Source: an uncultured virus (IMG/VR IMGVR_UViG_3300028595_000010)
Taxonomy: Duplodnaviria; Heunggongvirae; Uroviricota; Caudoviricetes
IMG/VR virus record: IMGVR_UViG_3300028595_000010
Length of the DNA: 64,000 nucleotides
Reading direction: 5' to 3' (one strand)
Within the stretch, counting starts at the first letter, position 1. The number at the start of each line of letters is the position of its first letter. Shown here in pieces: positions 41,961-56,690 of this stretch. The notes under the pieces are model-generated. The model saw only the letters and a program-made list of their open reading frames with translations. It made no database searches and was not told the DNA's origin. The position numbers were made by a program, and so were the translations under genes.

Positions 41961-44126
41961 ATGAAGTTCCATAAAATTAAAATGATTGGCAAATATTGGA
42001 TGCAAGATGTCTCATCTTTGCCATCCTGGGCGCCTGAAGACGAAGGACGTTTAGTATATCAAAATACAGATGAAACTGTATATTATGGAACTAGCACTGG
42101 ATGGGCTGCTGTGGGGTCAGGCGGCGGAGGAAGTCAATTAAATATTGATCGTCAGGAATTTCAAGCATCTGCCGGACAAACAATATTTACTCTATCATTC
42201 AACTACACATTGAGCAGTAATGGCTTAATAGTCTATGCTGATAATATGTTGATGATCAAGAATGTTGATTATTATGAGACTGACTCAAATACAATTACAT
42301 TCATTACAGGCAGAGCACAGGATGAGGAAATAACGGTCCTAAATGTGTCTACAAATGCGTCGATTCAACGTGTCGATGTAGTGTCCACTTTGAGTCAAAC
42401 TGTCTTTAATTTACCGTTTTCATACGTTGTAGGTAGTAATGACCTATTAGTCTTCTCTAATAATATGATGATGATTAAAGGTGGAGTAGATTATACTGAA
42501 ACAGATCCTACTACTATCACATTTGCAACAGGCAGAGCATCCAGTGAAACTATAACATTCATGCATTTAGGTACATCTGGAGAAATCAATACTGGTACTA
42601 ATATTGGCGCAACAGGTCAATTGGGATATGCAGGTAAATCAGGAACAACATTACAATTTAGAAAATTAGATTCTTGTAATGGATTAGTCACTTCAATTGT
42701 AAGTGATACCATTATGACTGAGCCAAATTTCCTTCCTCTAACTACATTCCCAGGAACTCCCGCTTCTAATGATTATTTCATCATGAGAAGGAATGCAGAC
42801 GGATTATATTATAAGGTTCCTGGATCAACTATTGGAGGTGATGACGGTGGATTTGATATGTCATATATTCCTATTACTGCCACATCTGATCAAAGTGGAA
42901 ATCTGACATTTAATCAGACTGGGTCTGCAACTAATTCATATCTATATACTCTTGCAAACTTTAGTGGAGTAGGAATATCGTCCACGGAAATTAGAGGAAT
43001 ATTTGTTAGTACAGAAGTGCGAGTATCGGGAAACAATGTTACAAATGCTGAAGTCCAGGCATTATATCCTGATGGATCAACTGTAACTATACAAGCCAAA
43101 TCGATAAGCGCAGCCGATGATGATGGAAGATCAAATGCAACATTCTTAATTCCTATATCTCCTTCTCAATCTAGTATAACTCTCACATTAGTAACTACTG
43201 ATAATAATGCATATGCTGAATTTACAATTCTTGGAGCTTGGCAAAGAATAGCGGCTAGCATTCAATTCTTTGCTCCTATTGGCACTATACTTCCATTTTC
43301 AGGACCGTCCGGACAAGTTCCTAGTAATGCATTATTATGTCATGGGCAAGCTATATCAAGAACTTCTTACTCTGAATTATTTGCAGTCATCGGGACCACA
43401 TATGGATCAGGAGACGGATCCGCCACATTTAATGTCCCTGATCTTCGTGGTAGATCAATTCTTGGTCTTGATAATATGGGAGGTTCTGACGCTAACAGAA
43501 TTGATAGCTCAGTAACTCCTAATAGAAGTTCTGATACTTGGGCAGAAGATCTTGGTGGAAATGCTGGAGAAGATCAACATACCTTAACTGAAGCAGAAAT
43601 GCCATCTCATATCCATAGCACATTATTAGGGCAAGAAGGAGGAGCATCCGGTAGCGGAAGTTATGATCCTCCAACATATCCCCCTACTGATGTGTCGGTG
43701 GATACAGATTCTACAGGAGGAGATCAGCCACATAATAATGTCCAACCGTCAATGGCAATGAATTGGATTATTATTGCAAGTTTAGATCCACAGATGCCAA
43801 CAGGTAACAATCTAGCTAGAGGATGGGCAAACTTCAGTTATAGTGGCGGAATATTAACAGTCAACGATAGTTATAATGTAGCATCTATTACAAGAGTTGG
43901 TGCAGGAATATATGATATAACTTGGCTAATCACATTTGCTAATGCTAACTATTCTCTTGTAGGAAGCACAGAAGATAATGGATCTGAGGGAGGGCATTTT
44001 TCATATTCGAATAAGACTGCTTCCACAATACGAGTGTACACAAGAAAACAAATAAATCCTAGTAGTGTGTGGCACAACTCATCAGATTCTGCAGACATCA
44101 GTTGTGTAGCTTATGGAGAACAATAA
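41961..44126 (+). CDS. Tail fibre protein with phage tail-collar domain
   Basis: PIGTILPF....LLCHGQAISRTSYSELFAVIGTTYGSGDGSATFNVPDLRGR...HNNVQPS; two GQT.F.L repeats. Confidence 0.85.
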   Translation: MKFHKIKMIGKYWMQDVSSLPSWAPEDEGRLVYQNTDETVYYGTSTGWAAVGSGGGGSQLNIDRQEFQASAGQTIFTLSFNYTLSSNGLIVYADNMLMIKNVDYYETDSNTITFITGRAQDEEITVLNVSTNASIQRVDVVSTLSQTVFNLPFSYVVGSNDLLVFSNNMMMIKGGVDYTETDPTTITFATGRASSETITFMHLGTSGEINTGTNIGATGQLGYAGKSGTTLQFRKLDSCNGLVTSIVSDTIMTEPNFLPLTTFPGTPASNDYFIMRRNADGLYYKVPGSTIGGDDGGFDMSYIPITATSDQSGNLTFNQTGSATNSYLYTLANFSGVGISSTEIRGIFVSTEVRVSGNNVTNAEVQALYPDGSTVTIQAKSISAADDDGRSNATFLIPISPSQSSITLTLVTTDNNAYAEFTILGAWQRIAASIQFFAPIGTILPFSGPSGQVPSNALLCHGQAISRTSYSELFAVIGTTYGSGDGSATFNVPDLRGRSILGLDNMGGSDANRIDSSVTPNRSSDTWAEDLGGNAGEDQHTLTEAEMPSHIHSTLLGQEGGASGSGSYDPPTYPPTDVSVDTDSTGGDQPHNNVQPSMAMNWIIIASLDPQMPTGNNLARGWANFSYSGGILTVNDSYNVASITRVGAGIYDITWLITFANANYSLVGSTEDNGSEGGHFSYSNKTASTIRVYTRKQINPSSVWHNSSDSADISCVAYGEQ

Positions 44127-44620
44127 TGAAAGTAATATCATTTTATTCATTAGATAAAGTGGCATCAGTCATTTATCCAATTTGGAATAATAAAGCTGCA
44201 TCTGAAACAGATGAAGAATTTTTAGAAAGAATAGCTGAAATTGTTCCTCAGCAAATGAAATGGTCGATAAGATATCAAGAAGATACAGATATCCCAGATG
44301 ATTATTTTGATGATGCATGGATAATAGGTGCTGAAAAAATAATTGTCGATATCGGAAAAGCTAGAGATATTCAATACAATAATATTTCTAAAGCTAGAAA
44401 TTATCGATTGACTGAATTAGATTCTTCTGAAATTGAAGCATGGTCAAAAGAAGATAAAACAAAGCTAGCCAAAATTAGAGTAGAAAAACAAAAACTCAGA
44501 GATCTGACTATTAATCTAAAAGACGAATTAAAAGAAATACAAGATTTAGAGAAACTAAAAAACTACTGGCCAGGCATTCTTAAAATCGAAGAACTAAGAA
44601 CAAAATTAAAATTAAGCTAG
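44126..44620 (+). CDS. Putative tail fibre assembly/chaperone protein
   Basis: Follows the fibre gene; IPDDYF.DAW...ARN.RL.ELD...KQKLRDL pattern. Confidence 0.55.
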   Translation: MKVISFYSLDKVASVIYPIWNNKAASETDEEFLERIAEIVPQQMKWSIRYQEDTDIPDDYFDDAWIIGAEKIIVDIGKARDIQYNNISKARNYRLTELDSSEIEAWSKEDKTKLAKIRVEKQKLRDLTINLKDELKEIQDLEKLKNYWPGILKIEELRTKLKLS

Positions 44621-44631
44621 GAATTCAAAAT

Positions 44632-45294
44632 ATGTCTGATCAAATATTTCACACAAACATAGATCATCAAGGCGAAATAAAAATTCAGCCTGTAGCCACT
44701 CTTCCTGTGTCTGCAACATCAGATGATAAACGAAGACTGATCTATACATTAGATACAAACAAACTTTATTGGTCAAACGGATCAACTTGGAGCGAATTAA
44801 GTAGAAATTCCGCGCCAGTAGGTTCTATTATTCCATTTGGAGGAGCCGAAGGATCTATTCCTTCTGAATCATTATTGTGTAATGGCCAGGCTGTATCGAC
44901 TACCACATATGCTGATTTATTTGCTATAATAGGATATACGTATGGAGGAAGTGGATCAACATTCAATGTTCCAGATTTAAGAGGCCGATCTATTGCAGGA
45001 AAAGATAATATGGGAGGATCCTCTGCGGATAGATTAACAGGAGCATGGGCAGATACATTAGGCGGAGCAGATGGAGCTGAAACACATCAATTAACTGAAG
45101 CTGAAATGCCTTCCCATACTCATAATACTGGGAGCACACCAGATGGTACAGCTACCGGTGGTGCTGATTTTGTTGCTCGTCCTGTCGGATCTGGAGCAGA
45201 TAAAGCTACTAGCTCTACAGGTTCTGATGCAGCTCATAATAATGTCCAGCCAACTATGACTGTAAATTACATTATCATTGCCTTAGAAAGATAG
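44632..45294 (+). CDS. Short tail-collar domain protein
   Basis: PVGSIIPF...LLCNGQAVS.TTYADLFAIIGYTYGG...FNVPDLRGR...HNNVQP. Confidence 0.85.
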   Translation: MSDQIFHTNIDHQGEIKIQPVATLPVSATSDDKRRLIYTLDTNKLYWSNGSTWSELSRNSAPVGSIIPFGGAEGSIPSESLLCNGQAVSTTTYADLFAIIGYTYGGSGSTFNVPDLRGRSIAGKDNMGGSSADRLTGAWADTLGGADGAETHQLTEAEMPSHTHNTGSTPDGTATGGADFVARPVGSGADKATSSTGSDAAHNNVQPTMTVNYIIIALER

Positions 45295-45304
45295 GATTTA
45301 TATC

Positions 45305-45439
45305 ATGAAAAAGCAAAATACTCAAAAGAAAAAGAAAAACCCTGTAGTTCCTGTTTGTGAGGAAAATAGATACATTGAAAAGAAGCGCATCAAGAAAGGA
45401 ACTGGTCTTTCTGAGAATGCAAAAATTATCATGGAGTAA
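45305..45439 (+). CDS. Small basic hypothetical protein (44 aa, below ORF-track cutoff)
   Basis: MKKQNTQKKKKNPVVPVC...IIME; fills the gap between two + genes and has AGGA RBS. Confidence 0.5.
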   Translation: MKKQNTQKKKKNPVVPVCEENRYIEKKRIKKGTGLSENAKIIME

Positions 45440-45442
45440 CTC

Positions 45443-45937
45443 ATGGATTCAATTAAACAATTCTTATTTGAAGCATCTGATACCTCTAAAAAAGAAAAGG
45501 TGGTCAAATGTATAATCAAATATGGCGATAAGATATTAATCCTTAGGCGGGCAGCAAATACTCCTGGTGAAGGATCATGGGATCTTCCTGGTGGCATGTT
45601 AAAAGAAAATGAAAAACCAGAAGATGGAGTTAAGAGAGAAGTTAAAGAAGAAACTACTCTTGAGCTTAAAAATCTCAAATCAAAGAAAGTTGTCACAATT
45701 AAAGATAACGAAACTGGCCCAATTAACTCTCAAATTTACAATGCTGATGCCGTCAATGATGCTGTTTATCTTCCGCCATCTACATCGAACAGAGAAAAGT
45801 TTGCTTTTTGGAATGCTCCCAAACCTGAGCATTCAGAATTTAAATGGATTAAATATCAAGATGAATTAGAGCCTCTGCGCATGGTTGATGATTATAAAGT
45901 CGCAATCTTATCAATGCTTAAAGAAAGACAAACATAA
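45443..45937 (+). CDS. NUDIX hydrolase
   Basis: WDLPGG....NE.....VKREVKEET Nudix box. Confidence 0.88.
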   Translation: MDSIKQFLFEASDTSKKEKVVKCIIKYGDKILILRRAANTPGEGSWDLPGGMLKENEKPEDGVKREVKEETTLELKNLKSKKVVTIKDNETGPINSQIYNADAVNDAVYLPPSTSNREKFAFWNAPKPEHSEFKWIKYQDELEPLRMVDDYKVAILSMLKERQT

Positions 45938-46047
45938 TCAGACCCATTTAATAAAAAGTATCAACCCTCTAAATATTGAGTTTTTAGAAAATTCTAAAAA
46001 TAACTTATGAGTGCTAGTAACGCATATAATCTTTAAAAAATGTTTCC

Positions 46048-46061
46048 GAACAAATATAAAA
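46048..46061 (+). promoter_or_regulatory. GAACAAA motif (putative late promoter)
   Basis: GAACAAATATAAAA upstream of ATG 46102. Confidence 0.6.
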
Positions 46062-46101
46062 TCGTAGTTCGGCAATTATTTCAACACAAGGATTATTTAT
46101 T

Positions 46102-46893
46102 ATGGCAGTAGGTTATGGAAGAAACAATTCCTTTACCTGGACCCCACCAACTGTGCTTCCAGATTGTAATGGATGTCTTACATTCTTTGACTATGCGCGT
46201 TTGTCTGCGCAAATGGATCTTTATCTTCCACATAAATGTGTGATTGTACTTCAAGCTCAAGTTGGTCAGCCAACTGACGCATCTGGATATATTCCTATGG
46301 ATTTAACCACAGGTTTATGTCCCCCATCCATTGTTGATGTTCGTGTACCAGATGTTGATCTGGATGTTCCGGGTTTATCTGGCGGAAGAGATATTAATTT
46401 TGATAACTCTCTGACATTACCTGGAGATGGTACTCACTACAGATCCGCCCCTATGGATGGAGTGATTGCAGCACCAGACGCAGCAATTGGAGTTGCATCA
46501 GATGCAATTGTAAGTTACACCAACATCAAAAATTCTGATAGAGGTGAAAATGTAAATGTTCTATTGGAACTCTTCCCATCATCCATATCAGTTAGTTTGA
46601 TTGAAAATCTTGCTAATTTGGTAGCAGTTGATGGAACATTCCAATACTCCACAAATGGCGGAAGTTCTTGGAGCTCCTTGACTCCTATTAGGCGCTGGGA
46701 TGGAGCAACCACTTTTGAGTTGGTTGTAGCATTCCCAAGTGCTGTGGATGGAGAATTGCAGATTCGCGCCACATACGGAGTAGATGCAGTTCCTGGATCA
46801 TACACATGGAGAGTTACATATTCAAAGGATGATAATGTAGGCAACGAAAGAAAGTTATTTGTTGCTGAGGATTCATTCACTTTGACGACATAA
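46102..46893 (+). CDS. Probable structural / decoration protein
   Basis: Monocistronic unit with its own motif and terminator; beta-rich C-terminal domain. Confidence 0.5.
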   Translation: MAVGYGRNNSFTWTPPTVLPDCNGCLTFFDYARLSAQMDLYLPHKCVIVLQAQVGQPTDASGYIPMDLTTGLCPPSIVDVRVPDVDLDVPGLSGGRDINFDNSLTLPGDGTHYRSAPMDGVIAAPDAAIGVASDAIVSYTNIKNSDRGENVNVLLELFPSSISVSLIENLANLVAVDGTFQYSTNGGSSWSSLTPIRRWDGATTFELVVAFPSAVDGELQIRATYGVDAVPGSYTWRVTYSKDDNVGNERKLFVAEDSFTLTT

Positions 46894-46914
46894 TAGATCG
46901 TTAGTCTATTTACT

Positions 46915-46949
46915 AGGGCATCTCAGGGAAACCTGGGATGCCCTTTTTT
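46915..46949 (+). terminator. Rho-independent terminator
   Basis: AGGGCATCTCAGG-GAAA-CCTGGGATGCCCT followed by a T run. Confidence 0.92.
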
Positions 46950-46967
46950 ACGTAAAGGCGGCTACTA

Positions 46968-47525
46968 ATGAATCAGAATGAGTTACCAGATGAATATCCA
47001 ATTGAAGATATTTTTTTTGGAGATGATGATCGTCTAGATATGGACTTCTCAAAAGGGAGACCGCCCAAGACCGAAGATGATAAAAAGAAACCTAGAGAAC
47101 AAACAAAAAAGATAAAGGCCGCATCAGGAAGTAAACATTCTGCAATTCAAAAAAAATTGGAGGAGCAGGAAGACCTGATTAAACAGGCTAAATTCCTAAG
47201 GAAATTTGAAGAACGAATACAGCGACTTGAAGAACAAGAAAAAAAACAAAAAGAAGTTGCCGCAGTTCGTAAACAACAAAAGAAACAAGTAAAAAAGAAA
47301 CTCAAAAAGCACAGTTTAAAACCCATTCAGGCAATTCGTGGTGAGCTAAAAGAACTTGTTTCTTGTAATCATGAAGATGTATTTGATTTCTTCGACGGAC
47401 AAAATGTAAGGTCAAAGTGCAAGCATTGTTCTAGAGAAAAGATTTGGTCTCCTCAAGATTGGAGGAAAGCTAATCCGTTTGTTCCGTCAATTATGAATCC
47501 AAATCCCGTACTGTTTCCATTCTAG
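46968..47525 (+). CDS. Hypothetical Lys-rich protein with C-terminal CxH...CxxC
   Basis: 185-aa ORF. Confidence 0.55.
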   Translation: MNQNELPDEYPIEDIFFGDDDRLDMDFSKGRPPKTEDDKKKPREQTKKIKAASGSKHSAIQKKLEEQEDLIKQAKFLRKFEERIQRLEEQEKKQKEVAAVRKQQKKQVKKKLKKHSLKPIQAIRGELKELVSCNHEDVFDFFDGQNVRSKCKHCSREKIWSPQDWRKANPFVPSIMNPNPVLFPF

Positions 47526-47535
47526 GAGATTCAAT

Positions 47536-48252
47536 ATGCTCCCTAAAGTATCACTAATTATTACAAGCTATCGTCGTCTAGATTTTACCAGAAACTTAGT
47601 AGAATCTATTTTCAATTATACTACCCATCCTAATTTTGAAGTAATTGTTGTAAACACATGTCCTACATATAATAAGATGTTGGACCTGTATGTTGAAGCA
47701 CTCTCTCCTAAATGTAAAGTTGTTTCCGATGGAAGAAATCGACAATTTATGCAAGGCATTGAAGAAGGATATAAAATTGCAGATGGTGATTTTGTATTAC
47801 TAATGAATGATGATATGCTTGTATCTAAGACTCAGGGACATTGGGTACAAGTTATGCAGGAATATCTAATATCCCACAAAGATGTTGCCACATGTTCAAT
47901 TTACCAATATCTTGATGGACAACGACTTTATACTATTGGAGAAACAGATATTAATAAACCTGGTCACACATGTGGGGCTTATAAACTTAGACTTCAAGAG
48001 CTTCCTGAAGAAAAGGAAGTTTTGTGGAATAACTTTTCTTGTGTAATGATATCTAAAACATTTGTAGAAAACAATAGATTCTTAAATGTTGTTCCTGCAT
48101 CACAATATCATTATGGAAGTGATTCTTGTTATTGTAAACATGTAATCGATCAAGGTAAAAAGAATATCTTGATCAACAAAGCCTGGATCTATCATTTTAA
48201 CAGTAGGACCATGAGAGGTCGATATGGGAGATACATTTACCCAGGACATTAA
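47536..48252 (+). CDS. Glycosyltransferase family 2
   Basis: VSLIITSY, FEVIVVN, LLMNDD, YGSD, IYH. Confidence 0.85.
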   Translation: MLPKVSLIITSYRRLDFTRNLVESIFNYTTHPNFEVIVVNTCPTYNKMLDLYVEALSPKCKVVSDGRNRQFMQGIEEGYKIADGDFVLLMNDDMLVSKTQGHWVQVMQEYLISHKDVATCSIYQYLDGQRLYTIGETDINKPGHTCGAYKLRLQELPEEKEVLWNNFSCVMISKTFVENNRFLNVVPASQYHYGSDSCYCKHVIDQGKKNILINKAWIYHFNSRTMRGRYGRYIYPGH

Positions 48253-48700
48253 AATTGTAATTAACGGACGACACTTTAAATTTGTGTCGTACAATATTGA
48301 AACTGACAAATTGAATATTACGTATCATATCCCATGGATGAATAACTGGATGGAAATATCTGAGATGATTCGTGATGGAGAAGCTCCATTACGAGTTGAA
48401 ATGGATATCGATAAAATGGTAGCCACCATCAAAGATATAACTCCTGTAGATCTTCTTGCTGATGCCTTAATCAACAAGATTGCATTCAATGTAGATTCAA
48501 AGTTTAACCACATCGCATTCAATGGAAAGATGTGGGAAATTAAAAAATTCGAAAACAAATGTGAAGGAATTTTTCATCTTGAAGCAGATGAAGTAATCCC
48601 TGAATCGGTAGCCAAAGCAGAAGCTGATAAATTAATGAAAAAGGAAATTGCAGATGAACGAATTAGAAGAAGCAATTCTGAAACAGATGGAGGAGAATGA
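48224..48700 (+). CDS. Hypothetical protein
   Basis: 158-aa ORF with GAGG RBS. Confidence 0.55.
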   Translation: MGDTFTQDIKIVINGRHFKFVSYNIETDKLNITYHIPWMNNWMEISEMIRDGEAPLRVEMDIDKMVATIKDITPVDLLADALINKIAFNVDSKFNHIAFNGKMWEIKKFENKCEGIFHLEADEVIPESVAKAEADKLMKKEIADERIRRSNSETDGGE

Positions 48701-48992
48701 AGGAGCAGAAACAGAAGATGAAAATCTTACACCTTCAGAATCTGAAAACATATCCCAAGGAAAACAGCCAGAATTAGAACTAAAGACACTTACTAAGAAA
48801 GGAGTTGCATTAGTTCTAGATCAAATAGTTGGGGTAAGGTTCAGAATGGGAGAAGCTATATTTGAAATCAAAAGTATAAACAAAGGAAAATGTAGGTTTA
48901 CTGCTGAAGTGGCCAACCCAATCGAAGAATGTAATCAGACAATTGATTATATTGGACAAGCTAGATCTACCGGAACGAGTAAGAAAAAATGA
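48648..48992 (+). CDS. Hypothetical protein (start uncertain)
   Basis: ORF overlapping its neighbours in the operon. Confidence 0.45.
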   Translation: MQMNELEEAILKQMEENEGAETEDENLTPSESENISQGKQPELELKTLTKKGVALVLDQIVGVRFRMGEAIFEIKSINKGKCRFTAEVANPIEECNQTIDYIGQARSTGTSKKK

Positions 48993-49354
48993 TTCAGATA
49001 CGAGTAACAATTCCTGACCGTCTAGCCAAACAGCTAGAGGAATGTGAACTTGAAGAGTCTGAGGTAATTGCTCAAGCTTTAGACAGGTTCTTTTTGAAAA
49101 CTCCATCCATTGATAACATCCAGTGGCAAAAATCCATTGAGATGAAACTAATCGATTTACAAAATCAGTTAGATGCTCATCGCAATGGAGGAAATAAACA
49201 TGACACTGTCCTAGATAGTAGTGCCACTAAAAGAGGAATAGGTATAATGGATCCACTGGATATATCAACGTCAGAAGATGTTAGAGTAACAATTCCTAAA
49301 CCGAGAGTTCCTAAAGTAGAATCTACTTTAGGCGATTTCGAAATTCCTTTATAG
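48989..49354 (+). CDS. Hypothetical protein, possible ribbon-helix-helix N-terminus
   Basis: IQIRVTIPD.L...L......SEVI..AL..F. Confidence 0.5.
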   Translation: MIQIRVTIPDRLAKQLEECELEESEVIAQALDRFFLKTPSIDNIQWQKSIEMKLIDLQNQLDAHRNGGNKHDTVLDSSATKRGIGIMDPLDISTSEDVRVTIPKPRVPKVESTLGDFEIPL

Positions 49355-49661
49355 AAGATTTAATAAAAGTCTTTAACTGGTCTTCTCTTAAATGACCTTC
49401 ATGACGCCCAATGATCTTTCCCTCTTTAATGAGAATAAGAGTCGGGGTCGCCTCGATCTTAAACTTTGATTCTAGGATAGGCTCATCATCAATGTCAACT
49501 TCGGCAAAGGTGATTTTTCCATCCTTAATTCTTTTTTCAAGATCCTCAAGCACTACGTCTTGACGGATACAAGGAGCACACAAAGTCGATTTGAACTCGA
49601 CTAATAAGAGGCTACTTTTTTTAGCTTCTTGAAGGAAATTTGATTCATTAATTACTATCAT
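49323..49661 (-). CDS. Thioredoxin-family protein
   Basis: VEFKSTLCAPC, VDID, ATPTLIL.K.G. Confidence 0.85.
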   Translation of the reverse strand: MIVINESNFLQEAKKSSLLLVEFKSTLCAPCIRQDVVLEDLEKRIKDGKITFAEVDIDDEPILESKFKIEATPTLILIKEGKIIGRHEGHLREDQLKTFIKSSIKEFRNRLK

Positions 49662-49837
49662 TGTCTTAATGGACTCTTCTTTGGAAGGGATTTATTCCAC
49701 TGCTCGAGATCTGTTTCTTCGAGCCACTCATTGAGAACCTCAGCGATAACTTCGCTAAGACTTCTCTTTTGTTTGTTCGCAATTTTACTCAAAGACCTTT
49801 CCAAATCTTCATTAATCTGAATATTTATCCTTGCCAT
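49658..49837 (-). CDS. Ribbon-helix-helix (CopG-like) DNA-binding protein
   Basis: MARINIQINEDL...L..IA....RSLSEVI.E.L. Confidence 0.75.
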   Translation of the reverse strand: MARINIQINEDLERSLSKIANKQKRSLSEVIAEVLNEWLEETDLEQWNKSLPKKSPLRQ

Positions 49838-49841
49838 TCCT

Positions 49842-50120
49842 CTACTCCTTAGCTTTATCATCCAAATGTTTAGCATAATGAATTTTTTGGTATATCATCA
49901 CTGACCAGCACATCATCTGGATGCAATTCATTGCAGTCGTCAGATATAATTTCAATGTGAAACATGATACTGCACTGATTCCTAAGGCAACCAATGATCC
50001 TAACATGAGTTGCCATGAAATTTGTTCAGCACTCTTAGCTATATAATTCTTAATCAATTGTGGAATTAGAGAATAGCCAAACATAAATGAGGCTACAGTA
50101 AATGCGTAATCCTGCCACAT
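49842..50120 (-). CDS. PQ-loop (SemiSWEET-like) small membrane protein
   Basis: Three hydrophobic helices; LIPQLIKNY..KSA..IS. Confidence 0.75.
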   Translation of the reverse strand: MWQDYAFTVASFMFGYSLIPQLIKNYIAKSAEQISWQLMLGSLVALGISAVSCFTLKLYLTTAMNCIQMMCWSVMIYQKIHYAKHLDDKAKE

Positions 50121-50127
50121 CAGACTA

Positions 50128-51810
50128 TCAAACAGCTATTGTAAATGAAATATGAGGATGTGGGTCGTACCCTGTAATCTTAAAATCTTCATAAACAAAA
50201 TCATCTATGGATGAAATCGGATTTCTTGTCCACTCTAATTTAGGAAGTGGTCTAGGTTCTCTTGTTAATTGATCTCTTATTCCATCAAAGTGATTAGAAT
50301 ATATATGAGTGTTTCCTGACGAGATAATAAGGTGACCTGGGTCGAGTTTAGTTACCTTTGCAACCATATGAGTTAAAAACGCATATTGCGCAATGTTGAA
50401 GGGTCCGCCTAAGGCTGTGTCCCAACTTCTAATATACATTTGACAATCAAGATACTTACCTTCTCTTACATTGAATTGCCACATAACATGACAAGGGGGA
50501 AGACCTTTAACGCCCATTGTTTCAATCAATGGGGCATTCCATGCTGATACTATTAAACGTCTACATGTTGGATTATGTTTTATTGATGCAATTACCTTTT
50601 TAATCTGATTACATTCATCGTAAACATATTTAAAATCAGAAGGAGAATCGAGATATTCTACTTTCCATCCTGATTCTGTTAGTTTATTTTCTCGTAAACA
50701 TTTATTAACTTTCCACGAACTAGTTCCTACAATATCACATGCATTTTTCTTGCTCGGGCACACTATAGATTTTTCATCTTTTGTACATTTTATAAATGAG
50801 CAGAGACCAGAATTTAGTACTTGACTTTGTTTATTCATCCATTTACAAGTAGATACTGAATATTTATTAGATGCTGAAAAATCTTTATCTATACTATATT
50901 CATTAGGATATTCTAACTTCAATTGCCAATTTTCTATAGATTTAAAATCTTTTATAAAATTAGAAAGAATAAGCCATGATGAGTCTACAAAAACTCCTTT
51001 ATCCCCATAGCTATCATAGCACACATCTGATTCAGAATAACATCTAGATATCATTCCTTCCCATGTGGGTCGAAGTAACTTATATAAATGTTTATCTAAA
51101 TCTTCTATTTCTCCCATACAAGCAACCCCTTGAATAGAAGGATAATATGGATTAACAATTTCTCCTAAATCTATTGCTTGTCTCGATTTTGATTTAGCTA
51201 TATACCCGTTGAATGTAGATTGACAGTCATGAACTGTCCATCCTTTTTCGTTTTTATATTCGTTAATTACTATAAATTCTCCATAGGTCTTACTTGAAAA
51301 TACTTTGCCTACATATCCATATTTATTAGATGAGTAATCGGGATCAATCAACTCCTTAGAATAAGGGATTTTAGGATCTTCTATTGGAAAGTTTTTAACT
51401 TTAACTAATTTTAGATCATTCCAGTGTACCCATTGATAGCCATACACAGGACCTAATTCTCCCCATTTCTCAGCAAACTTATCATCTGCTTTGATTCGAG
51501 CTGCGAACTCTTTAACTGAAATATCATCTCCTGTTTGCTTCACATAATATCTGTGAGGCCACTCATTCCATATCTTCACATCGTTGTCAACCAAATACTT
51601 GATATTGGTGCTACCTTTAAGCATCCATAACAATTCATGTATGATTGATTTTGTATGAATCTTCTTTGTAGTTACAAGAGGAAATCCTTCAATAAGATTA
51701 AATCTCATCTGGTGTCCAAAGATAGCTCTTGTCCCGACACCAGTTCTATCATTTGCGGTGTCGTAACCTTCCTCCATAATCTTGGACAACATGTCCAAAT
51801 ACTGTTTCAT
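50128..51810 (-). CDS. thyA: Thymidylate synthase ThyA with in-frame endonuclease-domain insertion
   Basis: DRTGVGT, FPLVTTKK, ELLW, LGPVYG.QW, RRLIVSAWN, LPPCH, RS.D..LG.PFN, HIY.NH. Confidence 0.92.
   Translation of the reverse strand: MKQYLDMLSKIMEEGYDTANDRTGVGTRAIFGHQMRFNLIEGFPLVTTKKIHTKSIIHELLWMLKGSTNIKYLVDNDVKIWNEWPHRYYVKQTGDDISVKEFAARIKADDKFAEKWGELGPVYGYQWVHWNDLKLVKVKNFPIEDPKIPYSKELIDPDYSSNKYGYVGKVFSSKTYGEFIVINEYKNEKGWTVHDCQSTFNGYIAKSKSRQAIDLGEIVNPYYPSIQGVACMGEIEDLDKHLYKLLRPTWEGMISRCYSESDVCYDSYGDKGVFVDSSWLILSNFIKDFKSIENWQLKLEYPNEYSIDKDFSASNKYSVSTCKWMNKQSQVLNSGLCSFIKCTKDEKSIVCPSKKNACDIVGTSSWKVNKCLRENKLTESGWKVEYLDSPSDFKYVYDECNQIKKVIASIKHNPTCRRLIVSAWNAPLIETMGVKGLPPCHVMWQFNVREGKYLDCQMYIRSWDTALGGPFNIAQYAFLTHMVAKVTKLDPGHLIISSGNTHIYSNHFDGIRDQLTREPRPLPKLEWTRNPISSIDDFVYEDFKITGYDPHPHISFTIAV
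50614..51414 (-). mobile_element. HNH-type homing endonuclease domain inserted in frame in thyA, no intein motifs (boundaries approximate)
   Basis: W.GMISRCY....Y..YG.KGV.V...W...SNF..D...SIDKD....YS..TC.W, plus a C-terminal HTH-like segment, between QWVHW and NQIKKVI. Confidence 0.78.
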
Positions 51811-51882
51811 ACGGATACTCCATTTTCAATAAGGGTGTTTGTAATTTATTCCACTAAAACGGTTTTGACTGCCCTACTTATT

Positions 51883-52500
51883 TTAGATAGGATGGTCTTC
51901 ACCCAACCAATCCATTTTGATTGAGTCTGAGATATCTCCAACTTGTTTAGTTCCCGGAATTGGTTGGGCCGGTCGTGCAATTGCTCCTCCTGCTGATTTG
52001 CCAATTGGAATTTGTTGCTGTTGTTGAGGTTGTTGTTTTCGCTCATCCATTTTTTGTCTGAGGATTCTTCCTGCTTCTTCTGGAGAAACTGCTCCAGGGA
52101 TATTGGGGGCGGGAGCTGAGGAACTTGTAATGATTGGTTGTTGTGGGATAGGATCTCCTGTATTAGGTCCTTGTGGTCGAAACGGTAACCCAGTGTTAGG
52201 CACCTCCGGAACCGCAGGTGGAGGCGGAAGAGTTATCTGCTGTGGTGGTGCAGACACAGGAGAAATTGTAGGAGCATTAAGCTTCTTTAAGATAGCTTTT
52301 TGAGTCTTATGATTTTCTTTTAATTCCTCAAGAATATTGATCAAAATCAATGCAAGATTGTCAGTAGTATTGTTCAACACATTTAATGTGTTAACAATAT
52401 CTGCAGAAGTAATTTTAGGCTTTTCTGGTTTTGGATCTGGTTTAATAGGGCGACTAATACCAGTCTTCTTCGTCGTCTTCTCTATATTTTTCGTTGTCAT
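51883..52500 (-). CDS. Pro/Gln-rich hypothetical protein
   Basis: Low-complexity ORF; likely start MTTKNIEK. Confidence 0.55.
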   Translation of the reverse strand: MTTKNIEKTTKKTGISRPIKPDPKPEKPKITSADIVNTLNVLNNTTDNLALILINILEELKENHKTQKAILKKLNAPTISPVSAPPQQITLPPPPAVPEVPNTGLPFRPQGPNTGDPIPQQPIITSSSAPAPNIPGAVSPEEAGRILRQKMDERKQQPQQQQQIPIGKSAGGAIARPAQPIPGTKQVGDISDSIKMDWLGEDHPI

Positions 52501-52768
52501 ATTCTTCTTCTTCCTCTTCATAATATTCTTTAAGTTCAAATTCCAAATCAATTATTAAGTGATTTAACTCTTTGTTAACAACTTGAAGATATCTATTATC
52601 AATACTTAAATCTTGTATAATTCCTTTTAAGCGCTCAATTTTTTCTTGTTGTTTTTCAGCTCTTATTTCAAGTAAACCCCGAATGATGCAGTTGTCAATG
52701 GCGGATTGCTTCCACTTATTTATCCTTTCTTCATTAGAAGAAATCTTCTTTGACTCAGATTTTGCCAT
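52454..52768 (-). CDS. Coiled-coil hypothetical protein with acidic tail
   Basis: GGAG RBS lies inside a hairpin (see findings). Confidence 0.6.
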   Translation of the reverse strand: MAKSESKKISSNEERINKWKQSAIDNCIIRGLLEIRAEKQQEKIERLKGIIQDLSIDNRYLQVVNKELNHLIIDLEFELKEYYEEEEEEYDNEKYREDDEEDWY

Positions 52769-52806
52769 CGTGGGATCTCCTTTTTATTTTGTTCGGAAAT
52801 CCCACG
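52769..52806 (-). promoter_or_regulatory. RBS-sequestering hairpin whose loop is the GAACAAA motif
   Basis: Minus strand reads CGTGGGATTTCC-GAACAAAATAAAAA-GGAGATCCCACG-ATG. Confidence 0.7.
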
Positions 52807-52822
52807 GCGACATCCAATAATT

Positions 52823-53593
52823 TTACATTGATGCAGAGCCCTGTCCAGGCACTATCATTGCATCTTTTGCCATATCCGAACCTATAACTCCAGTCGGATG
52901 AGTTATTGTTTGAGATTGATTAGTTCTCATCTGTTGAAGTTGTTGTTGAACAGCAGCAGGAACTTGGGAAGGATCTCCTTCTAGCAGATTCTTAACTGGA
53001 GTAGCAGGGGTCTTTGCATTAGCAGTATCCAGCGCCTGAACGGTATGTGGTTTAACCGCTGTATGAGGAGCATTTTTCTGTGGCCCCAATCCAACTCTTA
53101 CAGTTTGTGGCCTAGGAGAAGGATTAATACCAGTATTCTGTGCTATCTGATTTGGATTTCTAACATTTGCAGGATTCATAGGAGTTGTATTTGACATATC
53201 TTCTGGTCTTGCAGGCCGACGTCCAAGAACTTTAGCCTTCTTAAATGCTGAAAATTCCTCTTCTTGTTTAGGTTCAGAATTAGTTACACTTTGAGGAATT
53301 TCTAATTGGACAGGCTGGAATCCATCTCTGAATCCTTCAGCCGCTTTAGATGCTTTCGCAAGAGCTTTTTCAAGTTCAATTGCGGCAGTAGAAGTTTCCT
53401 GACTGATTGCCATGATGTCATTGATTGCATCTTCACAGGCGAGATAGTTTTCAACAATATCATTAACCAAAGTTTCAAGATTTGGCTTACCGCTGAACTT
53501 GTCCCCAATCTTAGTAATCAAATCATCTTTGATTGCGACTGTGCTTACAGCAACTTTCTTTTCAGGTTTCTCTTCGATCTTTTTCTTAGTCAT
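52823..53593 (-). CDS. Hypothetical protein with Pro/Gln/Asn-rich C-half
   Basis: Likely start MTKKKIEEK. Confidence 0.55.
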   Translation of the reverse strand: MTKKKIEEKPEKKVAVSTVAIKDDLITKIGDKFSGKPNLETLVNDIVENYLACEDAINDIMAISQETSTAAIELEKALAKASKAAEGFRDGFQPVQLEIPQSVTNSEPKQEEEFSAFKKAKVLGRRPARPEDMSNTTPMNPANVRNPNQIAQNTGINPSPRPQTVRVGLGPQKNAPHTAVKPHTVQALDTANAKTPATPVKNLLEGDPSQVPAAVQQQLQQMRTNQSQTITHPTGVIGSDMAKDAMIVPGQGSASM

Positions 53594-53885
53594 TTTCTTT
53601 TCCCTTTTGTTTCGGTTGAATAGTTGACTTATCCACGAAATTTTCTTCTTTAACATTGACAAAATTATCGATAATATCTTGAGGCAGCTTTTCTTCTTTA
53701 GCCCTTTTCATAAGATACTTCCTCAATCCATCTGCAAACTTTTTACAGATTTGTCCTTCAACAGAGCTAGGTTGATGCAGTCTAAACACATACAACAGAT
53801 GTTTGACTTGATTGAACGATAGCTTAACTCCTATCAGTTCTTTATCAAATTCATGTAGGTCTTTTGGAGGGCGTCCACGTTTCAT
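53586..53885 (-). CDS. Hypothetical protein
   Basis: Starts MKRGRPPK; minus-strand GAACAAA motif at 53912-53918. Confidence 0.55.
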   Translation of the reverse strand: MKRGRPPKDLHEFDKELIGVKLSFNQVKHLLYVFRLHQPSSVEGQICKKFADGLRKYLMKRAKEEKLPQDIIDNFVNVKEENFVDKSTIQPKQKGKEND

Positions 53886-53920
53886 ATTCAATTCCAATAG
53901 TTGCTTTATATTTTGTTCAC

Positions 53921-53951
53921 AAAAAAAGAAGAGTAGTATAACCTACTCTTC
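53921..53951 (-). terminator. Rho-independent terminator (minus strand)
   Basis: GAAGAGTAG/CTACTCTTC stem followed by a T run on the minus strand. Confidence 0.75.
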
Positions 53952-53959
53952 CTCTAAAG

Positions 53960-54358
53960 TCACTCAAGGAGACCTTTCCTCGCCTTGAGGTATTTCCTCA
54001 AGTAAGGATAGGTACTCTTTCTTCGGTATCCATTTGGCCCGCCATTATGCATACGAGCCATTTCCGCCCATGTAGGTTTCCTTCCGTTCCTTTTCTCAAA
54101 AACGGTTGACCACCTATGAAGGTACATCTTGACATACCACGTTGCCATCGCGGTGTCTTTCATGTCCTTAGCGGTCGGGATTCGTTTGAATTTCTTCAAA
54201 ACTCTATCCCTGTAAAAATCGTTCACATCATCGACATAAGGCTGACGGATCTGATAAACTCCGTATGCCTTGTGTTTAAGATTTCGATCTCCGATGACAT
54301 CTGGATCGCCTCCTGATTCAATAAGAATCAAAATCTTCAAAAAGATAACCCAATTCAT
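53960..54358 (-). CDS. Lysozyme-like / lytic transglycosylase-fold protein
   Basis: IESGG (catalytic Glu), G.YQI, ARMHNGGPNG...T..Y. True start is ATG 54358 after AGGAGG. Confidence 0.75.
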   Translation of the reverse strand: MNWVIFLKILILIESGGDPDVIGDRNLKHKAYGVYQIRQPYVDDVNDFYRDRVLKKFKRIPTAKDMKDTAMATWYVKMYLHRWSTVFEKRNGRKPTWAEMARMHNGGPNGYRRKSTYPYLRKYLKARKGLLE

Positions 54359-54407
54359 AATGCCTCCTTTTGGGGATCCAGCCACAATTGACTGGATCCC
54401 AATGGGT

Positions 54408-55358
54408 CTACTTTTTACCGAGCAGTTTCTCGGCCATCTCTTGGGCTTTCGCCTCGAAGAGATCTCGAAGCAACTGGAAGTCACTGACGCTGTCCATGTT
54501 GTCGATGAAGTCACTGATGCTGTCGATATTCAAACCGACAACCGGAGTCTTCTCCGAATTTGGAGTTGCATCAGTTGGCAACTTCGATTTCTTTTTGTTG
54601 ATCTTTTTGGCAAAGTCATAGTACTGCTCGTTAAACTTGTCAACAGCTTCTTTCGTATTCATACCGTTTGCTTTATACTTCTGCACGGTATTAACCAAAT
54701 CCTCCTTCTCCTTTTTGGCATATATTTTCCTGCCCTCTGCGATAATGCCAGCCTCCTTTCTCCAAATCGAAATTGCGCCGCTGGATACAGATCTTCCAAG
54801 AATTTCTTGAGAGGCCTTTTCTGTAGCATCTTTTGATAGCATACCGGTATTAACAAGATCTCTAATCCTAAGACATACTGCTTTCCGCTGGTCCTTTGTG
54901 GTAATACTTTTTGGCATGGACACTTTCCTTTTCTTTTGTTGCTGACAAATCTTGCACCACTTTTGTGTGGCGCCAGTTGGAATAAACCAATTGCCACACA
55001 CACATTTTCTCTGCTTGTAGTCGATTTTTTTTCTGGGAAACCTTAATTCACCAGTCTTGACCTTCTCCTTACAGATTGGACAATACGAGTTTGGTGTTCT
55101 GTTTTGGTTAGTACATTTTGGATTTCGACAATCGTATAGCACATCTTTTGTACTATAATCTTGGTTACTCAATTTGAAATTGATTCCATCAAGATTATCG
55201 ATTTCCCTTTGTTGCTTTTCCTTGCCCCACTCGTCTTTTAGCTGGTCAATAAGAGTCTGAGCAGCAGCCTCACTTCCCGGCATTTGGGCTTCTGGATCGC
55301 CCAATTTTTTACGAAGGGATGAGATTTGATTCTCCATCCCCTTAGGAATTTCTCCCAT
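54408..55358 (-). CDS. Hypothetical protein with Zn-finger motifs
   Basis: CRNPKC..CPIC and CVC..CKIC; AGGAGG RBS. Confidence 0.6.
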   Translation of the reverse strand: MGEIPKGMENQISSLRKKLGDPEAQMPGSEAAAQTLIDQLKDEWGKEKQQREIDNLDGINFKLSNQDYSTKDVLYDCRNPKCTNQNRTPNSYCPICKEKVKTGELRFPRKKIDYKQRKCVCGNWFIPTGATQKWCKICQQQKKRKVSMPKSITTKDQRKAVCLRIRDLVNTGMLSKDATEKASQEILGRSVSSGAISIWRKEAGIIAEGRKIYAKKEKEDLVNTVQKYKANGMNTKEAVDKFNEQYYDFAKKINKKKSKLPTDATPNSEKTPVVGLNIDSISDFIDNMDSVSDFQLLRDLFEAKAQEMAEKLLGKK

Positions 55359-55392
55359 GTATACCTCCTGTTTGGTTGGTGAAATTTCCTTC

Positions 55393-55415
55393 GTATCATA
55401 AGGTTATATATTTAG
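55393..55415 (-). promoter_or_regulatory. Second promoter class CTAAATATATAACYTTATGATAC
   Basis: 22/23 identical to 60554-60576; upstream of a minus-strand gene. Confidence 0.65.
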
Positions 55416-55479
55416 TCATTATATATCCAAACAAACCTACGATATGTATGCGAACAAAATAAAAAGCAGGAAAAAAGTT

Positions 55480-55860
55480 ATGAATAAGTATAAACAATTA
55501 TCAATTCTCTTGGAACAACAAAGAGGCCCATACGAACCTGGAACTGAATTCCTGAATTTATCTAAAACCTATTCTAGTCTTAAAGCTGACTGCCAAAATA
55601 AATGCAGAACATCTAGAGATGTTCTTTGTATTCATAAATGTCATGTTGATGCTGCTAAAGATACTTTACGTCAAAGCGCCCAAATGATGACTAGAACTAG
55701 TCAGATTCCTGAACCAAAAAAGCGAGAAAAACAAAGAATCAAACTTCAGAAGCAAATTCAAAATATGAGAGAGCGTCTGAAGCTTGATCAGAAAATTCTT
55801 GACAAGGAAAGACAGAAAGCTAGAGGCGGATATAATCAGGGACGACAAGAAGTTCAATGA
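55480..55860 (+). CDS. Basic coiled-coil protein with leader ending ILLE
   Basis: GAACAAA motif at 55452 implies start at ATG 55480. Confidence 0.55.
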   Translation: MNKYKQLSILLEQQRGPYEPGTEFLNLSKTYSSLKADCQNKCRTSRDVLCIHKCHVDAAKDTLRQSAQMMTRTSQIPEPKKREKQRIKLQKQIQNMRERLKLDQKILDKERQKARGGYNQGRQEVQ

Positions 55861-56690
55861 TAAAATCATATAAGAATCTCTGTGAAATTCTTAATAGGAC
55901 TGAACAGAAGTATCTAGAAGAAACAAAACAGAATATTGGCGAAGATCTAGCATATGCGGCTCTTATTACATTTATATCATTTGTTATGAAATGGTTAGTA
56001 TTTTCTCTAATGCTTAGATCCATAGACAAAAAAATAGAAGATACAAAAATGTCCAAGAAGCTCCAGAAAATTACTGGAGATCCTAATGTAACAGTATGGA
56101 AAGTAAAATCATCAGAAGTAAATGCATTTAATGCAGGAAGTTCTAAAATGTATTACTATACTGGATTAGTGAAGGAACTTAAACTCACAGAAGGAGAATT
56201 AATGGCTGTAATGCTCCACGAATATGGGCATTATAGAGGAAAGCATATTCTCAAAAAAGAGTTAGCATATTATCCTTCATCATTCATTTTAACTTTTATT
56301 TTTGGATATATGTCTAAGCGAGGAGCTATCCATGGAGCTTATTTAGCTATTCTCCCACTTCATATTCTTATGAAGATATACGATGTCACATTTGGGAGAA
56401 AACATGAATTAGAATCTGATAGAGTAATGGTAGAATTCGGATATAAAAAAGAAGCCCTATCAGCATTCAAGAAGCTTTATAAATATGTAAGACATGAAGT
56501 GTGCAGGCAGATGAATATTCCAGAAAATTCTCAAAGTTGTACAGATTTAATCACCGAACTTCATTCATTAGATGAACATCCTACTTTTGAAAAAAGATTA
56601 GAAGAAATCAAAAATACTAAAGCCATTAAAGCATTAACCAGAATGTTGATGGCTAAACTCAAAAATGTATTGCCATTCATTAAAAAATGA
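55857..56690 (+). CDS. M48-family zinc metallopeptidase
   Basis: NAFN, AVMLHEYGH, ELESD, HPT...RL, and hydrophobic segments. Confidence 0.85.
   Translation: MIKSYKNLCEILNRTEQKYLEETKQNIGEDLAYAALITFISFVMKWLVFSLMLRSIDKKIEDTKMSKKLQKITGDPNVTVWKVKSSEVNAFNAGSSKMYYYTGLVKELKLTEGELMAVMLHEYGHYRGKHILKKELAYYPSSFILTFIFGYMSKRGAIHGAYLAILPLHILMKIYDVTFGRKHELESDRVMVEFGYKKEALSAFKKLYKYVRHEVCRQMNIPENSQSCTDLITELHSLDEHPTFEKRLEEIKNTKAIKALTRMLMAKLKNVLPFIKK

Follow-up and report, generated by a model that had tools for sequence, protein, structure and literature searches.

Homing endonuclease genes are thought to survive in essential genes only by means of self-splicing introns or inteins, or else to lie between genes. 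The thymidylate synthase gene (thyA, or td) is a classical target of homing endonucleases, as with I-TevI in the td gene of T4 and with I-BmoI; elements of this type encode GIY-YIG nucleases and reside in a self-splicing intron or outside the gene. We analysed a thyA gene of another build, which lies in 64,000 nucleotides (nt) of DNA from an uncultured virus (IMG/VR IMGVR_UViG_3300028595_000010; this whole stretch is called the window) and which carries in frame, at a site different from that of the I-TevI/I-BmoI-type elements, an insert of a homing-endonuclease-type family. The nearest published analogue that we found is the ShiLan domain, which was described, together with a 'lone LAGLIDADG' insertion, in DNA methylase genes of actinobacteriophages (Arsenault, Gosselin & Gogarten 2025, PMC11855218). 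The 'IPA-HNH' homing endonuclease genes were defined on three proteins of phage ICP1, including gp59 (Barth, Dunham & Seed 2023, PMC10448857).

An earlier note on this DNA, made from its letters alone, had read the insert as a homing element that does not depend on splicing. Our analysis showed that the gene is genuine and intact and belongs to an arrangement that recurs but has hardly been described. No description of this ThyA-insert architecture was found in the literature searched, which covers few subscription journals, and thymidylate synthase is not mentioned in PMC11855218 or PMC10448857. We consider it likely that a full-length module of a homing-endonuclease family has replaced a surface hairpin of ThyA (W130-N401), is translated unspliced and has been spread by homing. 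The interpretation as a homing element was supported by the presence of free-standing homologues, by a single insertion site in 92 of 93 fusions, by the lack of a Hint domain and of junction nucleophiles, by a confidently predicted single-chain fold and by incongruent phylogenies of the insert and its host. A selfish DNA element appears to persist here inside a key enzyme by tolerance and not by splicing.

The insert, its family and its host enzyme

The window's own ThyA protein (P0001, to which all residue numbers refer unless stated otherwise) is encoded by a single uninterrupted open reading frame (ORF) of 560 amino acids (aa) at 50128..51810 of the 64-kb window, on the minus strand like all parts of the gene given below, with its stop codon at 50128-50130. 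The frame is open throughout, as the earlier note had it, with no stop within the 560 codons, and the insertion that it had estimated at about 270 residues between QWVHW and NQIKKVI proved to be of exactly 270 residues (131-400; 50611-51420) between W130 and N401. The loop of about 8 residues expected in insert-free enzymes was also found, since the gap between the equivalents of W130 and N401 is about 8 residues in ThyAs of 264 aa (alignment A4); in P0277 (309 aa), the insert-free protein most closely related to P0001, this hairpin gap is 16 residues. A Shine-Dalgarno-like hexamer, AAGGAG, is located in codons 152-153 (51352-51357, minus strand), about 12 codons ahead of the point where free-standing homologues begin, and is probably due to chance. 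An internal translation start at this hexamer was considered and rejected, as no in-frame ATG, GTG or TTG is present at a usable spacing.

The insert alone was searched against 1.84 billion representative proteins, 3887 of which matched at E<=1e-3 and 583 at E<=1e-10. Classification of the best 150 relatives by phmmer, with the three parts of the window's protein as queries, gave 87 ThyA-insert-ThyA fusions, 56 insert-only proteins and 7 fragments, so that the family has members that are phage genes in their own right and others that form a domain inside ThyA. The free-standing relatives are mostly 190-320 aa long and begin at insert residue ~36; they are stand-alone phage genes annotated as homing endonucleases and adjoin genes such as thyA. 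In Bacillus phage LY2 (vB_BceH_LY2; L003 1483-4551) a free-standing member lies directly upstream of thyA. The thyA gene of LY2 is itself free of this insert; an I-TevI-like ORF, with the annotation 'intron-associated endonuclease 1', interrupts it. Nine longer free-standing relatives (380-661 aa) gave no match to a Pfam host domain. The architecture of N-terminal part, insert and C-terminal part was found in 93 stored proteins, including that of the window, and in 92 of them the ThyA match resumes at the same site, corresponding to residues 401-412 of P0001. At least 87 clusters formed at 50% identity have the arrangement at this one site, as do cultured phages, in which the fusion is annotated as a single thymidylate synthase coding sequence: Bacillus phages 015DV002 and Kioshi, Klebsiella phage KP13-7, Escherichia phage ph0011 and Tenacibaculum phage PTm1.

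The motifs that had been picked out by eye in the insert were found to be conserved columns of the family. Among 60 fusions, W250 and R256-C257-Y258 were each present in 59, Y268 in 58, W279 in 60, D308 in 58, K309 in 57, D310 in 59, Y317 in 60 and C322 in 53, and both K309 and Y317 were invariant in a further set of 48 sequences made up of the window's insert and 47 free-standing members. The PHROGs family phrog_2081 ('HNH endonuclease') matched aa 162-394 with an E-value of 1.8e-34. Comparison of the family alignment with ICP1 gp59 by hhalign gave a probability of 99.4% (E 1.8e-21) over 161 columns, which cover the barrel and the core described below, and BLASTP of the window's insert against gp59 gave an E-value of 5e-6. 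By this homology, the insert belongs with the ICP1 gp59-type 'IPA-HNH' proteins. The name 'HNH' given to it earlier held only in part: a family of the homing-endonuclease type was borne out by the homology to gp59, whereas a canonical HNH domain was not, as a Lys replaces the His and no Pfam HNH model matches. Pfam detected no AP2 domain in the window's protein and found this domain in only 2 of 48 family members; PF22083 was found in 15 of the 48, the window's own insert being without it at E<=0.01. The family profile matched only the thyA ORF itself in the 64-kb window, which holds no paralogue of the insert.

Eight ThyA fusions of 459-474 aa (P0023, P0047, P0082, P0097, P0100, P0102, P0105 and P0116) have shorter inserts that are devoid of the N-terminal beta-barrel, the match beginning at insert residue ~90-115; they may represent natural variation in size or successive stages of decay. 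A stand-alone ORF of 212 aa in Staphylococcus phage vB_SauM-V1SA15 (L008, 1273-1911) shows homology to the insert over its core and tail and is annotated as a dUTPase in four Kayvirus records, which is probably a mislabel. The match covers the 212-aa stand-alone ORF itself, which does not look like a second host gene.

The structure of the whole protein was predicted by AlphaFold 2 (AF2) with a predicted local distance difference test score (pLDDT) of 95.4, a predicted template modelling score (pTM) of 0.92 and no segment below 50, and that of the insert alone with a pLDDT of 87. The N-side linker of the insert (aa 131-165; 51316..51420) is highly variable in sequence, and its first position has no conserved Cys, Ser or Ala in the 60 fusions. 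DSSP on the full model assigned a strand to residues 130-137, with which this linker opens, and another to residues 393-400, in the C-side return strand of the insert (aa 391-400, FKYVYDEC; 50611..50640), so that the strands are predicted where a beta-stalk had been proposed. A small beta-barrel subdomain (aa 166-217; 51160..51315) follows the linker. Residues 32-87 of the insert model match SH3/Tudor-like barrels with Z-scores of 5-6, middling values that point to a common fold only, and the barrel also matches the N-terminal domain of Hpy99I (Z 4.8).

The conserved core (aa 218-336; 50803..51159) is a putative His-Me-finger-like nuclease domain, as suggested by the column counts, by the hhalign match to gp59 and by a structural match to PacI. 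Its key residues are W250, R256-C257-Y258, Y268-G269, W279, D288, D308-K309-D310 (50881-50889), Y317 (50860-50862), C322 and Q330 (50821-50823). The secondary structure predicted for it comprises beta strands at 305-308 and 323-326 and a helix at 327-333; Asp308-Lys309-Asp310 ends the first of these strands, Tyr317 is in the next loop and Gln/Asn330 is on the helix, and all of them are nearly invariant in the fusions. The best structural match of the core is PacI (3m7k_A), a weak one with a Z-score of 4.8 and a root-mean-square deviation (rmsd) of 3.2 over 84 residues, and the nearest named clusters in the ESM Atlas were only NUMOD-type families (best score 0.90), which gives a lead only. The tail, which had been described as helix-turn-helix (HTH)-like, was identified by VIA and by the family profile as an I-HmuI-type, NUMOD-like DNA-binding domain (aa 337-390; 50641..50802). 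VIA matched it to 1u3e_M with a Z-score of 6.9, an rmsd of 1.6 over 53 residues and 24% identity, and to the DNA-binding domain of I-TevI with a Z-score of 5.2. The sole match of the family profile in the PDB was 1u3e_M (I-HmuI), by way of the tail (E 4.5e-4), and the best Foldseek match of the whole insert was also I-HmuI (E 2.7e-3).

The N-terminal part of ThyA (aa 1-130, ending in QWVHW; 51421..51810) is 79% identical to aa 1-130 of P0277 and 75% identical to P0160, while the C-terminal part (aa 401-560; 50131..50610), which holds the catalytic Cys440 and the dUMP-binding residues, is 64% identical to aa 147-309 of P0277. Residue 401 corresponds to chain residue 110 of Escherichia coli thymidylate synthase (TS), and the C-terminal part aligns with chain residues 110-263. 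Pfam detected Thymidylat_synt (PF00303) alone in the 560-aa protein, in two stretches (E 8.6e-99); phmmer matched the protein to E. coli TS with an E-value of 5.6e-79, and Foldseek placed the ThyA core on E. coli TS with a template modelling (TM) score of 0.96 normalised to the target (E ~1e-27). The catalytic motifs were kept, as had been observed, in P439-C440-H441, R461-S462-x-D464 and P470-F471-N472. C440, R461, D464, H502 and Y504 are invariant in all 60 insert-carrying ThyAs, and R417, R418, S462 and N472 are each shared by at least 90% of them. The ThyA is complete and probably active as an enzyme. The window's ThyA also has an extra segment at aa ~86-115, upstream of the insert site. 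Identity of the insert site with the site of the extra segment of L. casei-type ThyAs was considered and is not claimed, as we take that segment, of about 50 residues, to be in an upstream loop, where the window's ThyA has aa ~86-115.

Phylogeny and proposed mode of spread

Comparison of the window's ThyA with other ThyAs showed that its nearest relatives are insert-free: its N- and C-terminal parts, most similar to the insert-free P0277, are at most 46% and 52% identical, respectively, to those of any of 96 insert carriers, and the insert is absent from all of the best 120 ThyAs of 308-980 aa. Judged by match length, nine of nine thyA-related viral loci (matches of 135-1089 nt) look insert-free, as do all 80 loci kept from 279 confirmed metagenome thyA loci (420-948 nt). 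The viral and metagenome contigs yielded no close relative of the thyA of this phage, whether insert-bearing or insert-free.

A ThyA tree was made from 64 carriers and 56 insert-free proteins after removal of the insert columns. P0001 is sister to the insert-free P0277 in this tree (Shimodaira-Hasegawa-like approximate likelihood-ratio test [SH-aLRT] support, 99), within a clade of 12 rows, 10 of which are insert-free (96). The well-supported branches (SH-aLRT >=95) force at least four changes of insert state, a count that says less for other lineages, as the insert-free proteins were drawn from the neighbourhood of the window's ThyA. The insert tree placed the window's insert in a supported clade of 14 inserts (97), the host ThyAs of which are scattered over the ThyA tree.

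Approximately unbiased (AU) tests were made with constrained fast searches in IQ-TREE under LG+G4, on 80 and 64 rows, and such searches may exaggerate the sizes of the differences in log likelihood (dlnL) but not their direction. The ThyA data rejected a single clade of all carriers (dlnL 227, p 1.9e-4), the 14-member insert clade (dlnL 423, p 1.5e-4) and the insert topology (dlnL 1125, p 1.7e-7), and the insert data rejected the ThyA topology (dlnL 1385, p 2e-54). The earlier description of the insert as a permanent domain in a surface loop can be kept for the in-frame domain of ThyA, whereas its permanence became doubtful in view of the patchy distribution and of the insert-free nearest relatives.

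The G+C content at third codon positions (GC3) was 0.17 in the insert, compared with a mean of 0.28 and a minimum of 0.20 in the 17 other long ORFs of the window; the GC3 values of the N- and C-terminal parts of ThyA were 0.39 and 0.24, respectively. The low GC3 of the insert is a weak hint of a foreign origin. The lower similarity of the C-terminal part to P0277 (64%, against 79% for the N-terminal part) might conceivably mark a co-conversion tract.

In the mechanism that we propose, a gp59/IPA-HNH-type homing-endonuclease gene with a tail like that of I-HmuI would have been inserted in frame into the hairpin codons of thyA. The module would be translated together with ThyA and held on a two-stranded stalk, leaving ThyA competent. 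During mixed infection, the chimera or its better-preserved relatives would bind and cut an insert-free thyA near the hairpin codons, and repair of the cut gene would copy the insert, which would have spread in this way until now or until recently. The insertion would destroy its own target site. Persistence would come from a loop that tolerates a large domain, at a small cost to the phage.

Splicing, nuclease activity and rival readings

The earlier note had called the insert neither an intein nor an obvious intron. Its first part was upheld by searches with working controls. In the ThyA protein, Pfam at E<=1 revealed neither a Hint nor an intein domain, while the same library detected Intein_splicing (PF14890, E 3.7e-17) and HNH_3 in the window's portal protein, and Intein_splicing and LAGLIDADG in two ThyAs, P0063 and P0070, which also carry this insert. 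The junctions of 60 carriers have no Cys or Ser at the start, no terminal His-Asn and no Cys, Ser or Thr at position +1, again as had been stated; the junction residues vary freely and the +1 residue is the Asp or Asn of the (D/N)Q motif of ThyA. No intein was seen among the 50 VIA structural rows listed, which alone would not decide the matter. On its domain content and junction residues, the insert is not an intein.

The second part of that description was reached by argument. Rfam at E<=10 found no intron in 49500-52500, with only two chance snoRNA-like matches, and this negative carries little weight because the positive control, the LY2 thyA locus, also gave no match (at E<=1) despite its annotated intron-associated endonuclease ORF. 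The case against an intron is made by other observations. In 93 proteins, most of them less than 50% identical, the open frame continues through both junctions; the region homologous to free-standing proteins is aa 166-390, which leaves only ~35 and ~10 codons at the ends of the insert; and these ends are predicted as strands with a pLDDT of 87-96. The insert is probably not an intron, and from its sequence and predicted fold we infer that it is spliced neither from RNA nor from protein.

Two side observations concern true inteins. The portal protein of the window (Portal_T4; 12962-16063, plus strand) has a canonical intein, with Intein_splicing at aa 578-900 and HNH_3 at aa 702-743. P0063 (909 aa) and P0070 (871 aa) are doubly invaded ThyAs, with the in-frame insert at ~aa 140-350 and a LAGLIDADG intein (Intein_splicing, Hint_2) further downstream, near the region of the catalytic Cys.

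The gene stretch was found in marine-sediment metagenome runs, with no RNA run among those listed as containing it. One contig of 15,379 nt in run X1 spans the whole stretch at a depth of 148 with no differences, and two contigs in run X2 cover both junctions, also with no differences; X1 and X2 may be the source of this DNA and are then not independent support. Runs X3 and X4 had fragments only (11 of 30 and 3 of 30 bins, respectively). No joint, indel, variant letter, read breaking at the junctions or insert-free form was seen in the contigs examined from these four runs. An assembly chimera, which had been named as a finding that would overturn the reading, was thus looked for and is not supported, the same architecture being present in 92 other stored proteins, including those of complete genomes of cultured phages.

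Homology to gp59 and the predicted fold of the core suggest that the insert is a nuclease. PacI has no catalytic His and uses instead a Tyr of its omega loop, whereas groups of His-Me finger proteins that have neither the His nor a substitute Tyr are probably inactive, as with Smad MH1, a DNA binder (PMC5714182). The invariant loop Tyr of the insert family resembles the solution of PacI, so that an active enzyme stays plausible. Whether the window's copy still cuts DNA is about an even bet.

Several points weigh against an insert that is a nuclease and is spread by homing. The nuclease assignment is indirect: Pfam HNH models gave no match at E<=1 in the window's protein and none at E<=0.01 in 48 family members, and hhalign found no similarity between the family and the HNH_3 segment of the portal intein (probability 0.1). 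The position of the general-base His is a Lys in 57 of 60 fusions and in all 48 sequences of the set with free-standing members; the likeness of the core to PacI reaches only a Z-score of 4.8; and no biochemical test of a family member was found in the available part of PMC10448857. The nearest relatives of the window's insert are just 38-45% identical to it, so that no recent donor or transfer into this lineage is documented. The trees do not separate gain from precise loss, and the dlnL values may be exaggerated as said above. Databases of gene calls hold only the copies with an open frame, broken copies being missed or listed as fragments (7 of 150), and the Rfam negative is of little weight.

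One of the rival readings is that of a domesticated domain, a former homing endonuclease that no longer cuts and is kept for a useful DNA-binding or protein-docking function; it might tether dTMP synthesis to replicating phage DNA or regulate the gene, the patchy distribution then being due to recombination of thyA alleles. This would agree with the loss of the canonical catalytic His throughout the family, with the view of groups without His and substitute Tyr as inactive DNA binders, with the rigid packing of the module on ThyA in the model (pTM 0.92), with the conservation of both the ThyA catalytic residues and the insert motifs in 60 carriers, and with the distance of the closest inserts, among which no recent transfer is seen. 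We nevertheless hold it to be unlikely, as the K309 and Y317 motifs are equally invariant in the 47 free-standing members, annotated homing endonucleases beside genes such as thyA, and as the invariant Tyr parallels that of an active enzyme, PacI. The strong incongruence of insert and host and the minimum of four state changes suit a selfish element better, and the nearest ThyA relatives manage without the insert.

The insert might also be removed cryptically, whether through a self-splicing RNA that escaped recognition, through an intein-like reaction of an atypical kind or through translational bypass, to leave a mature ThyA of ~300 aa. The failure of Rfam on the annotated intron-type interruption of the LY2 thyA leaves room for a divergent intron, and an unknown splicing could not be fully dismissed in the ShiLan study either (PMC11855218). 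We regard such a removal as highly improbable: the codons outside the free-standing homology are too few for a group I core, the ends of the insert are confidently predicted strands, the frame is open in 93 divergent proteins, the junctions vary and no Hint domain is present while the true inteins of the portal, P0063 and P0070 were detected, and the contigs have no joints or indels. To our knowledge, a translational bypass of 810 nt also has no precedent. An artefact, in which a chimeric assembly or a mis-joined contig made the fusion, is suggested by the metagenomic origin of the DNA and by the fact that the two runs holding the complete stretch may be its own source; with a contig of X1 across it and coverage of both junctions in X2, both with no differences, and with 92 further proteins of the same architecture, some from complete genomes of cultured phages, it can be practically dismissed. 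The reading of a homing-endonuclease module, inserted in the hairpin and tolerated without splicing, is the one that we retain.

Genomic context, significance and comparison with known systems

The virus to which the window belongs is a large, T4-like myovirus of marine sediment. The window encodes a Gp23-type major capsid protein (19235-20674) and a DnaB-like helicase (8402-9943), and a thioredoxin gene (49323-49661) is located just downstream of thyA; megablast of 44000-56000 against the phage collection gave no match. Two large, adjacent glycosyltransferase-like ORFs are present on the plus strand (34564-37446 and 32939-34567). One of them has a DXD sugar-binding region and a match to TcdA/TcdB-type glycosyltransferases (E 1.5e-10), while the other matches Glycos_transf_1, and they may have a role in the modification of DNA or surface sugars.

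A full endonuclease-like protein translated within a folded, conserved enzyme points to another route of survival for such genes, in a loop that tolerates a domain. The system lends itself easily to tests, as several carrier phages can be cultured and complementation of ThyA is a classical means of selection; it is also a natural example of a large-domain insertion tolerated by thymidylate synthase, and it points to an uncharacterised His-less branch of the His-Me finger nucleases. A bolder view, which is possible though doubtful, is that of a distinct and widespread class of splicing-free homing elements, in which the endonuclease would exist only as an internal domain of the host enzyme, with a His-less (Lys/Tyr) chemistry, and in which the obligate ThyA homodimer would perhaps pair two nuclease heads so that both strands of an insert-free thyA are cut. 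The invaded gene would then provide expression, dimerisation and target immunity alike, and selfish genes would have, in addition to introns and inteins, a third means of residing within an essential gene.

Unlike the ThyA insert, I-HmuI resides in a group I intron, and its HNH motif is canonical, with the His present. This HNH nicking enzyme, encoded by an intron of Bacillus phage SPO1 (PDB 1u3e), shares with the insert a modular build and the C-terminal DNA-binding domain, and the PDB profile search found no sequence match of the family to its nuclease half. The intein of the window's portal is, like the ThyA insert, an endonuclease domain translated in frame within an essential phage protein, but it has both Intein_splicing and a canonical HNH_3 domain, neither of which is present in the ThyA insert. 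The LY2 locus gives an example of intron-type and free-standing endonucleases at thyA, where the window has an in-frame insert instead.

PacI (PDB 3m7k/3ldy; His-Me finger group 20) resembles the core of the insert by the absence of the catalytic His, by an omega-loop Tyr that parallels Y317, by coupling to an HTH-like domain and by its place in a predominantly viral group (PMC5714182). The likeness is weak, and the insert family keeps only two conserved Cys (C257 and C322). The IPA-HNH proteins have a barrel and a core homologous to those of the insert, with the W..M..RCY and LDKD motifs, and they share with it an atypical domain missed by the Pfam HNH_3 model and an association with essential and nucleotide-metabolism genes (PMC10448857). 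They differ in that they are free-standing or associated with introns or inteins and end in an AP2 domain (PMC10448857), whereas the ThyA insert is in frame and has an I-HmuI-type tail.

Comparison with the ShiLan domain showed that both elements lie inside the gene of a phage enzyme, a methylase in that case and ThyA in ours, that the host frame stays open and that neither an intein nor an intron is detected. The disjunct distribution of both suggests active homing, and the ShiLan insertion is predicted to loop out of its host enzyme (PMC11855218). However, the HNH of ShiLan is encoded out of frame, and translation in the host frame gives a poorly structured product (PMC11855218), whereas the ThyA insert encodes an endonuclease-like protein in the frame of its host, with a confidently predicted fold.

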